Positions 54 through 2,729 of a stretch of 3,047 bases of DNA are shown piece by piece. The position numbers and the translations under genes were made by a program. The notes beneath the pieces are model-generated. The model did not search any database, was not told the DNA's origin, and saw only the letters and a list, made by a program, of their open reading frames with translations. How positions within the stretch are numbered: position 1 is the first letter of the stretch; each line of letters starts with the position of its first letter. Location of the stretch: NCBI RefSeq assembly GCF_003334335.1, contig NZ_QOWQ01000085.1, one strand, 5' to 3'. Source of the stretch: Escherichia coli. Its GTDB lineage: Bacteria > Pseudomonadota > Gammaproteobacteria > Enterobacterales > Enterobacteriaceae.

Positions 54-443
54 TTACACAAATCTATGTACAGGCTCACGGGCAATTTTACGACGGCGTT
101 CACGCCATAACCCCTCTTCTATCATCCACTTTCTGAGAGTTTCAACGGATAAAGATAAACCGTGTATCTCGCGCAATTTTTCGCACGCAAACGTAGGTCC
201 AAAATCAGCGTAACGGCCTTTGAGGAGTGAAATTACTGTTGCTCTGAATTCAGTAGAAAAGGAATTATTAGGACGCTTTCCACGTCGGTGGGAAACCAGA
301 CCAGAAGGCCCTTCATTTCTATACCGTTGCACCAGACGTTTAACCTGCCGAATAGAAATGCCAATGCGTGCCGCAGCTTGTTCCTGAATAATCTGAAGTC
401 GGTGGAGTTCCTTATGACTCATCGTAACAGTCTCTTTGATCAT
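54..443 (-). CDS. N-terminal HTH DNA-binding portion of a transposase/integrase-family protein (129 aa); likely a truncated IS or transposon remnant
   Basis: ORF-track protein MIKETVTMSHKELHRLQ...IGISIRQVKRLVQRYRNEGPSGLVSHRRGKRPNN has a helix-turn-helix signature typical of N-termini of rve/DDE-type transposases. The ORF ends at TAA (54-56) about where a catalytic domain would begin, and the 53 nt beyond it do not continue the protein in any frame. Start ATG 443..441 is preceded by a GGGGGA Shine-Dalgarno-like motif. Confidence 0.55.
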   Translation of the reverse strand: MIKETVTMSHKELHRLQIIQEQAAARIGISIRQVKRLVQRYRNEGPSGLVSHRRGKRPNNSFSTEFRATVISLLKGRYADFGPTFACEKLREIHGLSLSVETLRKWMIEEGLWRERRRKIAREPVHRFV

Positions 444-471: not shown

Positions 472-531
472 ACATTTTAGAATGGTTCAAAGGGGACATT
501 ACAGCTTGGTGTTAACAATAGCCTGCTTCTC

Positions 532-547
532 CGTGCCTTTCGGCACG
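532..547 (-). other. GC-rich hairpin with GAAA tetraloop on the minus-strand transcript
   Basis: Plus CGTGCC-TTTC-GGCACG; minus RNA CGUGCC-GAAA-GGCACG (6-bp stem, GNRA-type loop). No U-tract follows, so it is not a classic intrinsic terminator. Confidence 0.3.
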
Positions 548-592
548 TAAGAGGCTAACCTACATGTGTCTAGCATGAAATTGGCCTCAGAT

Positions 593-627
593 TAATGTTA
601 AGCGTCTTGCAGGACGCGTAATGTTAA
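593..627. repeat. 9-bp direct repeat TAATGTTAA (593-601 and 619-627) flanking a short hairpin (602-618)
   Basis: Read directly: TAATGTTAA, then GCGTCT-TGCAG-GGACGC (stem includes one G-U pair), then TAATGTTAA. Function unknown. Confidence 0.45.
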
Positions 628-640
628 CTGGGGCTTTTCT

Positions 641-676
641 CTATCTGCCGTTGGTGTCCATGCCCGAGGCAGATAG
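641..676. repeat. Perfect 9-bp inverted repeat (CTATCTGCC / GGCAGATAG) with an 18-nt spacer
   Basis: 641-649 CTATCTGCC pairs exactly with 668-676 GGCAGATAG. It lies in ORF-poor DNA downstream of the small membrane protein gene (minus-strand sense). Confidence 0.45.
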
Positions 677-777
677 CCTCAAGCACCCGCAGTCATTCTA
701 CTTAACTAAGATTTCCCCGCAAACCGTTTTTGTCCAGCACAGTAAATATCCAACTAAACCAATGGAGTTCGCTGTAT

Positions 778-957
778 TTACCGCCAGTATTCAATGCACA
801 TGACCGCCATGAACACCCCTAAAAAAAGGGCATTTATATATCCAAATATTAATATCAAAACATCAACTTTTTCCATATACCTTGCTGTGAAGATGATGGG
901 CATACATGATGCGAACAACCAGAACGCAACAAACAAAAACTGCAATGCGTTTTTCAT
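778..957 (-). CDS. Small hydrophobic membrane protein, 59 aa, two predicted transmembrane helices
   Basis: ATG at 957..955 is preceded by AGGAGG with 4-5 nt spacing (minus: GTAGGAGGAATAATG). Protein MKNALQFLFVAFWLFASCMPIIFTARYMEKVDVLILIFGYINALFLGVFMAVMCIEYWR has two ~20-residue hydrophobic stretches separated by the charged loop RYMEKVD. The ORF-track version (778..996) starts at an upstream GTG with no ribosome-binding site; the internal ATG is preferred. Confidence 0.55.
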   Translation of the reverse strand: MKNALQFLFVAFWLFASCMPIIFTARYMEKVDVLILIFGYINALFLGVFMAVMCIEYWR

Positions 958-1211: not shown

Positions 1212-1499
1212 CTAGTTGCCGGATGTTGGTGGATTTTCGCGTTTTAGTTGTTCATAAAAGTGCACAGCTTTAACCAGTTCTTCTGATGTAACTGGGACTG
1301 GTGAGGCAGTGAATAAGGCCTGAATTTGATAGTTCGGCCTGTCGTTACAATCCTCTTTTTTCGGTACATATTTCCAGTCACCAGACCACTACTTCCCCTG
1401 AAAGTCCGTAACGCCTTTTTTCACGTAGCGATATCGCCATGCCACTGGTTTTGCTTGCCCCGCCGTTTCATGCCCTTCCTGATAATTAATCTCGCTCAT
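1212..1499 (-). pseudogene. Small phage-like ORF (95 codons) interrupted by one in-frame TAG at 1391..1389
   Basis: Minus frame: MSEINYQEGHETAGQAKPVAWRYRYVKKGVTDFQGK-TAG-WSGDWKYVPKKEDCNDRPNYQIQALFTASPVPVTSEELVKAVHFYEQLKRENPPTSGN-TAG. Its ATG (1499..1497) overlaps the upstream gene's TGA as ATGA. Coding-like sequence continues in the same frame after the amber codon. Confidence 0.4.
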
Positions 1500-1687
1500 T
1501 CATCGCCCCACTCATCACAATATGCTTCGACCGGAGTTTTTCCCGCTTCATAGTCATCACGCTAGGATTCGACATCAGCAGCACTTCCACCGCGTAACTC
1601 ACCATAGTCCATTAATAGTTCATCCCGCTCTTCAAAACTGATGTTATATTTAGCTGAACAAAAATCAGCCACTTTGTTCTTCCTCAT
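1496..1687 (-). pseudogene. Small acidic ORF (63 codons) interrupted by one in-frame TAG at 1564..1562
   Basis: Minus frame: MRKNKVADFCSAKYNISFEERDELLMDYGELRGGSAADVES-TAG-RDDYEAGKTPVEAYCDEWGDE-TGA. The final TGA (1498..1496) overlaps the next gene's ATG, which argues that the post-amber segment is the true C-terminus. Confidence 0.4.
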
Positions 1688-1736
1688 CGTCTTTTATTTC
1701 GTGGTATGAGTAATTGCAGTAGTTAAAGAAAATTTC

Positions 1737-1847
1737 TTATGCTCCGTCATGAATTTCCTCAGGTGTTGCGTCATCGTCCACTTCGAATACATCCTCAAAA
1801 TCTCCACCAGCTATTCCCGTTTCAATAATAATTTTGAACTTTCGCAT
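1737..1847 (-). CDS. Very acidic small protein, 36 aa
   Basis: ATG 1847..1845; MRKFKIIIETGIAGGDFEDVFEVDDDATPEEIHDGA with 11 D/E against 3 K/R. An AGGAGG lies upstream, separated from the ATG by a stable hairpin. Confidence 0.35.
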   Translation of the reverse strand: MRKFKIIIETGIAGGDFEDVFEVDDDATPEEIHDGA

Positions 1848-1854
1848 TTCACTA

Positions 1855-1876
1855 CCGCCCTTTCGGGCGGCCTCCT
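1855..1876 (-). promoter_or_regulatory. Shine-Dalgarno AGGAGG followed by a GAAA-tetraloop hairpin, then 7 nt, then the ATG of the 36-aa ORF
   Basis: Minus RNA: AGGAGG (plus 1871-1876), then CCGCCC-GAAA-GGGCGG (plus 1855-1870, 6-bp all-GC stem), then UAGUGAA, then AUG (1847). The hairpin would bring the ribosome-binding site to a functional distance from the start codon when folded. Confidence 0.35.
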
Positions 1877-2109: not shown

Positions 2110-2466
2110 TTAAAAAATCAGAACGCCGTGCGGCCTCAACACCCGAAAGGCTTCTTTAAATCTCTGTCGCGAATCATCACGCCAGGCATCTTTATTCAGC
2201 CGTCCATATTTCTTTCCCATCCAGGCGTTATCACCAACACTCTCAAGATGCGGAGGGTCTAATACAACCATCGAAAAAGATGCGTCTGCAAATGATAATG
2301 CACGAAAATCTGCGATAATGTCAGGGCTGATAATCAAGCGTCTCCCATTGCGTAATGTGTATCCTTCTTTTCTGATATCGCTGAATATCGCCCGTTCGTC
2401 AGACTTATCGAACCAGAACATGCGGCTGCCACAGCACATATCAAGAATGGTTGCCGGTGCACTCAC
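2110..2466 (-). CDS. SAM-dependent methyltransferase core (118 aa), probably a phage-type DNA methyltransferase, apparently lacking a normal N-terminus
   Basis: Protein contains a motif-I-like LDMCCGS near its start, a DPPH motif resembling motif IV (D/N-PP-Y/F/H) of amino-methyltransferases, and VLRPHGVL resembling the common LKPGG motif. The only in-frame start is a GTG that overlaps the upstream ORF's stop (GTGA); a stop lies 7 codons further upstream in this frame. Confidence 0.55.
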   Translation of the reverse strand: MSAPATILDMCCGSRMFWFDKSDERAIFSDIRKEGYTLRNGRRLIISPDIIADFRALSFADASFSMVVLDPPHLESVGDNAWMGKKYGRLNKDAWRDDSRQRFKEAFRVLRPHGVLIF

Positions 2467-2729
2467 TGCGCCACGTCCTGAAAATTACCCTGATAGAAAG
2501 CCAGTATGCGCTGCATAACTTCGCTCTTCCGGCACTCGCGACAGATTATGTTTAGGCGACTGTCGTAGCGACGTATTTCTCCGTCAGGTGATGACCAGAT
2601 AAGGTCCGGATCAACCACAGCAGGTTTCTTCACCTTTGCCCTCGAGAGTTTTTTGCGGGCGTTTTGCCAGTCCTTACGCGCCTGTTCAGAGGGGAATAAC
2701 CCGTATCCGGAGCTTAAGTTGCACGCCAT
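2463..2729 (-). CDS. Hypothetical 88-aa protein; possibly the N-terminal part of the adjacent methyltransferase separated by a frameshift
   Basis: ORF MACNLSS...DLIWSSPDGEIRRYDSRLNIICRECRKSEVMQRILAFYQGNFQDVAQ ends with a TGA that overlaps the GTG of the methyltransferase frame. There is no clear Shine-Dalgarno before ATG 2729. Codon usage is otherwise coding-like. Confidence 0.4.
   Translation of the reverse strand: MACNLSSGYGLFPSEQARKDWQNARKKLSRAKVKKPAVVDPDLIWSSPDGEIRRYDSRLNIICRECRKSEVMQRILAFYQGNFQDVAQ

Follow-up and report, generated by a model that had tools for sequence, protein, structure and literature searches.

The closest described relatives of the locus studied here are an intact three-gene module of coliphages and the cryptic prophage Qin of Escherichia coli K-12. 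In phage vB_EcoS-689R5 the module consists of three small genes arranged head to tail, referred to below as g0 (DUF7167 family, 60 aa), g1 (58 aa) and g2 (119 aa). The intact g0 orthologue matches Pfam PF23768 (E=1e-14, residues 2-53); the only Pfam family found for g0 is this uncharacterised DUF7167 family. Neither g1 nor g2 had a match in Pfam, and none of the three genes had one in NCBIfam. The PHROG families matched were phrog_1997 (g0), phrog_519 (g1) and phrog_660 (g2), all annotated as "unknown function". A set of 80 IMG/VR contigs, collected by searching with the intact g2 protein, has an uninterrupted g0 in 77/80, g1 in 79/80 and g2 in 80/80, and the intact genes evolve under constraint (median pairwise dN/dS 0.13). 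A 4-nt overlap between g1 and g2 is annotated in 689R5 (L005, CDS 1328..1504 and 1501..1860) and in two further prophage records, L002 and L003. In functional relatives the module is a set of three small accessory genes of the early region whose stop and start codons overlap (by 8 nt and by 4 nt), placed between the DUF977/methyltransferase genes and the hok/sok locus, roughly at the position of the lambda nin region. Judging from the conserved overlaps, translation of the three genes is probably coupled in functional phages.

The DNA examined here (the window) is a stretch of 3,047 nucleotides from E. coli (contig NZ_QOWQ01000085.1). It carries the same module on the minus strand, with g0 at 1847..1665, g1 at 1672..1496 and g2 at 1499..~1212, and its products are 81-88% identical to those of the 689R5-type module over the alignable parts. 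Each gene is interrupted by a single in-frame stop codon. An earlier reading of the sequence alone had noticed two adjacent genes with internal TAG codons; both are confirmed, and a third gene of the module, g0 with a TAA at 1739-1737, had been overlooked. We are confident that these are ordinary pseudogenes, each inactivated by a single stop-codon mutation in the course of ordinary prophage decay. The ATGA overlap that the sequence-only reading described as joining the two genes is present at 1496..1499 (minus strand) and is an ancestral feature of the module, as the annotated 4-nt overlap of 689R5 indicates. As the overlap suggests, translation of the downstream gene may depend on that of the upstream gene. 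The 8-nt overlap between g0 and g1 lies at 1665..1672 (minus strand), where the orthologues read ATGGCTGA and the window reads GTGGCTGA.

The first gene, g0 (1665..1847, minus strand), is a DUF7167 family pseudogene that corresponds to 60 codons in the orthologues, and its alignment with the intact protein spans codons 1-60. The nonsense codon is TAA at codon 37 (1737..1739, minus strand) and the ancestral codon is AAA (Lys). Lys is found at this codon in 82/85 loci and TAA is restricted to members of the window lineage. On identical sequence the NCBI annotation pipeline (PGAP) calls the gene "DUF7167 family protein, internal stop". Stop codons at other places in g0 were also seen among the IMG/VR contigs L030, L070 and L084 (TGA at codon 2, TAA at codon 58).

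The second gene, g1, is a pseudogene of the 58-aa phrog_519 phage protein. The open frame at 1687..1496 (minus strand, 63 codons) translates as MRKNKVADFCSAKYNISFEERDELLMDYGELRGGSAADVES, a single internal TAG at 1564-1562, and RDDYEAGKTPVEAYCDEWGDE up to the final stop. The TAG (1562..1564, minus strand) is codon 37 of 58 and replaces an ancestral TGG (Trp). Trp occupies this codon in 82/86 loci; TAG is found in members of the window lineage and in one independent case, L045. The frame was first read from the ATG at 1687, and here the TAG is real but the start is lineage-specific. The ATG at 1687 occurs in the window lineage only (7/89 loci), five codons upstream of 1672 and in frame, and it originated by a GAA to GAT change in the overlapping end of g0. 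The conserved start is at 1672; the 82 loci outside the window lineage all have ATG there, and the lineage itself has GTG. The claim that protein-like sequence continues past the TAG holds for g1, as 21/21 residues are identical to the intact orthologue. PGAP left g1 unannotated between the flagged g0 and g2 on identical records. In L045 (IMG/VR contig 2703718816_000016, 1828-2001) the same Trp-37 codon was changed independently from TGG to TAG; this allele is 96.6% identical to the 689R5 protein and the window copy is 81% identical.

The third gene, g2 (1212..1499, minus strand), is a pseudogene of a 115-119-aa phage protein of family phrog_660. The frame 1499..1212 (minus strand, 95 codons) translates as MSEINYQEGHETAGQAKPVAWRYRYVKKGVTDFQGK, a single internal TAG at 1391-1389, and WSGDWKYVPKKEDC, and it ends in RENPPTSGN before a stop. 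The TAG (1389..1391, minus strand) is codon 37, a position that varies across the family (Q/P/M/S/A) and is CAG (Gln) in the nearest intact orthologues. Protein-like sequence past the TAG was also borne out here, with ~75% identity to the orthologue up to RENPP. Homology to intact orthologues stops after codon 91 (RENPP, ~1227) and the conserved C-terminal ~28 aa are gone; the phage copies keep the full C-terminus, ending in VETGAWKDAVDWVLKEACQAVNIGTKGD. The internal TAG of this frame is real, but the one at 1214-1212 does not mark the ancestral end of g2, given that intact orthologues have 115-119 aa. PGAP annotates g2 as a pseudogene ("frameshifted; internal stop"), with a call that reaches 1078.

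The sequence-only reading had proposed that the TAG codons arose by single transitions (TGG to TAG and CAG to TAG) and had suggested a check for sense codons at these positions in orthologues. The check gave Trp and Gln as predicted, encoded by TGG in g1 and CAG in g2, and both TAG-creating changes are G:C-to-A:T transitions. In the window lineage, point mutations to stop have taken AAA to TAA in g0, TGG to TAG in g1 and CAG to TAG in g2; g2 has in addition lost its C-terminal end, and the sequence appears to have drifted since then without selection on the proteins. Each stop lies ~65-70 nt upstream of the start of the next gene, so coupling to the downstream gene would be broken as well. We infer that expression and function of the module have been lost, with a polar effect on coupling. 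N-terminal fragments of 36 residues (g0, g2) or 36-41 residues (g1) could still be made; they are unlikely to be functional because replacements fall within them, the g1 start codon included.

Relaxed selection was assessed by counting codons unique to the window lineage. There are 29 in all: 3 are stops, 7 are synonymous and 19 give novel amino acids, 16 of which fall at positions invariant in 79-82 intact orthologues. For intact pairs the nonsynonymous:synonymous counts were ~18:24 and 17:31 (range ~17-18 to 24-31; Fisher p = 0.024 and 0.003). The criterion was a codon not seen in any reference, a crude form of parsimony by which synonymous changes tend to be missed; in addition, 689R5-like alleles are over-represented among the references. 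Pairwise dN/dS had been considered as a decay test and was replaced by this lineage-specific count. It was uninformative, with a median of 0.16 for the window against intact orthologues and 0.13 as background; it is hardly raised because most of the divergence predates inactivation. Nonsense changes make up 5.7% of the possible point mutations in these ORFs, and at least three stops among 29 changes are expected with P = 0.23. It had been remarked that two lesions both being TAG was suggestive although not statistically compelling. The number of stops fits neutral chance, and we see no signal in two of the three being TAG.

Exact 61-mers around the stops were found in 496 (g1 TAG), 880 (g2 TAG) and 383 (g0 TAA) of 5,426 complete E. 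coli genomes; the lower g0 count may be caused by flanking SNPs. The suggestion of a very recent origin is contradicted by these numbers, which show the lesions to be fixed in a large lineage, and by the many replacements at residues that are invariant elsewhere. The g2 TAG is also present in the prophages L002 and L003, in which g0 and g1 are intact and ~8% different in DNA from the window, so it is either older than the other two lesions or has been moved by recombination. The g2 lesion is accordingly the most widely distributed, with the g0 and g1 lesions confined to one allele lineage of ~500 sequenced genomes. Strict nesting of the three lesions by 61-mer counts was considered and holds only partly; L089 and L090 carry all three stops. 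An assembly or sequencing artefact as the source of the stops has a probability close to zero, as the same bases occur in hundreds of independently sequenced complete genomes.

Other carriers of the g2 TAG have suffered further damage in this gene: a 57-bp deletion and a +2 insertion within an A-run in L003, and a pair of 1-bp deletions in L090. The frame past the g2 TAG is therefore not preserved in other carriers. Programmed frameshifting at the A-run upstream of the TAG (A8 in L003 compared with A6) was rejected, since the alternative frame has no orthologue-like protein; it is also contradicted by the intact orthologues, which read straight through in frame 0.

These lesions also bear on the possibility that the TAG codons are read through, by an amber suppressor tRNA of host or phage or by leaky termination, to give full-length proteins at a low or regulated level. 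That both stops first noticed are TAG, that the frame past each of them is still orthologue-like, and that the g1 stop is followed by C can be taken to favour read-through; a stop codon followed by C is a weaker termination context in E. coli. However, an amber suppressor would leave the TAA of g0 unread, g2 lacks its conserved C-terminus in all carriers whatever happens at the TAG, other g2-TAG carriers are frameshifted on both sides of it, and the replacements strike invariant residues. ARAGORN found no tRNA in the window, in the surrounding 12.9 kb or in the whole 48.7-kb record of the related phage PhiR42_1. For the host, the search covered the supE allele of glnV, using a glnV sequence with the supE anticodon that was validated by exact match to C600, DH5alpha and DH1. 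It matched 155/5,426 genomes, and all 60 matches listed are K-12 laboratory derivatives, among them C600, DH5alpha, DH1 and J53. The Qin prophage of K-12 lacks the module, whereas the amber alleles occur in 496-880 genomes. Expression only in an amber-suppressing background, as had been entertained, thus finds neither a prophage tRNA nor, among the matches listed, a supE host other than K-12 laboratory derivatives, and we consider read-through highly improbable.

It had also been proposed that the genes carry engineered or laboratory-selected amber alleles in the manner of the phage amber mutants lambda Sam7 or Pam80. Nothing but the identity of the codon speaks for this. The identical sequence is present in wild isolates from Mozambique human stool, calf housing, wastewater, chicken, river water, pig and food, and the genes have no known function worth targeting. 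With natural isolates from people, livestock, water and food as carriers, an engineered origin is barely conceivable.

In orthologue numbering all three stops fall at codon 37 (K37, W37, Q37), 175 and 173 nt apart. We treat the shared codon as a coincidence because there is no local sequence similarity between the sites and the lesions differ in their genome distribution.

A more demanding alternative is that the stops are adaptive. In one form, they would be the footprint of host selection that silenced a harmful, translationally coupled phage early module; the spread of the g2 TAG across backgrounds, the independent g1 hit in L045 and the position of all stops at codon 37 are the points in its favour. 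We regard this form as quite unlikely. If it held, a host-toxic or host-takeover function could be suspected for the intact DUF7167/phrog_519/phrog_660 module. Slightly less credible still is the general proposition that alleles of either kind have been maintained, the host having silenced a harmful early module or the 36-41-aa N-terminal peptides having gained a function. It can draw on the knock-out of all three coupled genes, on the occurrence of the g2 TAG in at least 880 genomes and two prophage backgrounds (in principle a sign of selection rather than hitch-hiking), on the TGG to TAG change at the same g1 codon in L045 and on the g0 stops in the IMG/VR contigs L030, L070 and L084. Yet the number of stops is in line with the neutral expectation (P = 0.23), and 8 novel replacements upstream of the g1 stop, that of the start codon among them, affect invariant residues, which speaks against conservation of the N-terminal peptide. 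The wide distribution is explained equally well if a fixed cryptic prophage has been inherited vertically and lambdoid prophages have recombined with one another. Neutral decay of the module remains our preferred explanation.

The genomic context is that of a defective prophage. The 851 bases around the three genes were matched in 2,622/5,426 complete E. coli genomes, with 505 records at 99% identity or above. In strain 300709, which has an identical record (L001), the locus is flanked on one side by rem, hokD, relE, relB, ydfV, flxA, ydfW, an ISNCY transposase fragment and IS150, and on the other side by the methyltransferase gene, a truncated DUF977 gene, a truncated RecE-like gene, an excisionase, an integrase and rspB. 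Both the site and the flank match those of Qin, the cryptic prophage of K-12, and the window belongs to a decaying lambdoid cryptic prophage of the Qin type that adjoins rspB in many natural E. coli isolates. A full-length version of 48.7 kb has been deposited as Escherichia phage PhiR42_1, derived from ECOR13; it has lambda-like structural genes and a sequence identical to the window across the module, and it carries all three stops. A literature search for PhiR42 gave no match.

Compared with PhiR42_1, the window has a 4.6-kb deletion with its junction at 2703-2712, where 10 bp are common to both flanks. The missing ~4.6 kb contain the N-terminus of RecE/exoVIII, ydfD, ydfC, ydfB, cI, cro, cII, O and the start of the DUF977 (LygF) gene. 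As a result of the deletion, what is left of DUF977 at its 3' end (2463..2729, minus strand) and a RecE-like remnant on the plus strand are fused head-to-head. At the other end of the window, the N-terminal 129 aa of an ISNCY-family transposase are encoded at 54-443 (minus strand), and positions 1-77 are the end of an IS256-like element that corresponds to IS1414 in strain HSP425 and is unmatched in most genomes. Given the deletion of the cI/cro/cII/O region and the ISNCY and IS1414 fragments, the prophage element in the window is defective. In the source of the window this second IS (IS1414) abuts or truncates the ISNCY element. A promoter and terminator scan of 1000-2150 gave nothing above shuffled expectation that bears on the stops.

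Several neighbouring features were noted as well. A sok antitoxin RNA was found at 517-688 (minus strand; Rfam match, 104 bits, E=7e-24) with no adjacent hok coding sequence. Homology to the intact hok locus of L002 extends no further than the hok start codon (~518), the point at which the ISNCY element sets in, and in strain 300709 the matching hokD coding sequence is ~5 kb off, directly after relBE. The sok region appears to be the regulatory half of the hokD (relF) locus, now separated from the rest of it. Pedersen and Gerdes, in 1999, are said to have described hokD as inactivated by a major rearrangement. The IS150 of strain 300709 is located at window ~588-593, within the orphan sok/hok leader; the window has no IS150. 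Between the g2 remnant and the sok region there is an unannotated 59-aa ORF at 778-957 (minus strand), MKNALQFLFVAFWLFASCMPIIFTARYMEKVDVLILIFGYINALFLGVFMAVMCIEYWR, with two hydrophobic stretches; in the corresponding region of PhiR42_1 an ORF is annotated on the opposite strand instead. Upstream of the module, a SAM-dependent methyltransferase ORF of 118 aa (2110-2466, minus strand) covers positions 52-165 of the 229-position phrog_954 profile. Annotation of the near-identical strains L089 and L090 gives this gene a frameshift and an internal stop, so the ORF may be another remnant.

Public annotation has largely captured this case, since g0 and g2 are already flagged by PGAP in RefSeq as pseudogenes with internal stops; g1 is a pseudogene missed in the RefSeq records. 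The module offers a clean textbook example of how accessory genes of a cryptic prophage decay step by step. The intact module is widespread and well conserved (dN/dS ~0.13), and its natural knock-outs show that neither the host nor carriage of the prophage requires it.

The locus can be set beside four known systems. The Qin prophage of K-12 occupies the same site adjoining rspB, has the same rem-hokD-relBE-ydfV-flxA-ydfW block and a RecE-like (ydfE) remnant, and has decayed in the same manner, by IS insertions, deletions and point-mutation pseudogenes. It differs in that the whole three-gene segment is deleted in K-12 and only 2703-2981 of the window are shared, whereas the window retains the genes as nonsense pseudogenes. 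The intact coliphage module of vB_EcoS-689R5 has the same gene order and overlaps, but the phage genes are uninterrupted and the g2 C-terminus is complete. Classical amber mutants propagated on supE/supF hosts likewise have TAG in place of a Gln or Trp codon in a phage gene, created by a single transition. Unlike them, the alleles of the window are natural and fixed in wild lineages without supE, and they are accompanied by a TAA stop, C-terminal loss and drift, with no sign of conditional expression. Programmed read-through or recoding shares with the window an in-frame stop followed by protein-like sequence; here, in contrast, the orthologues have sense codons and no conserved stop, and the downstream frame is not conserved among the carriers.
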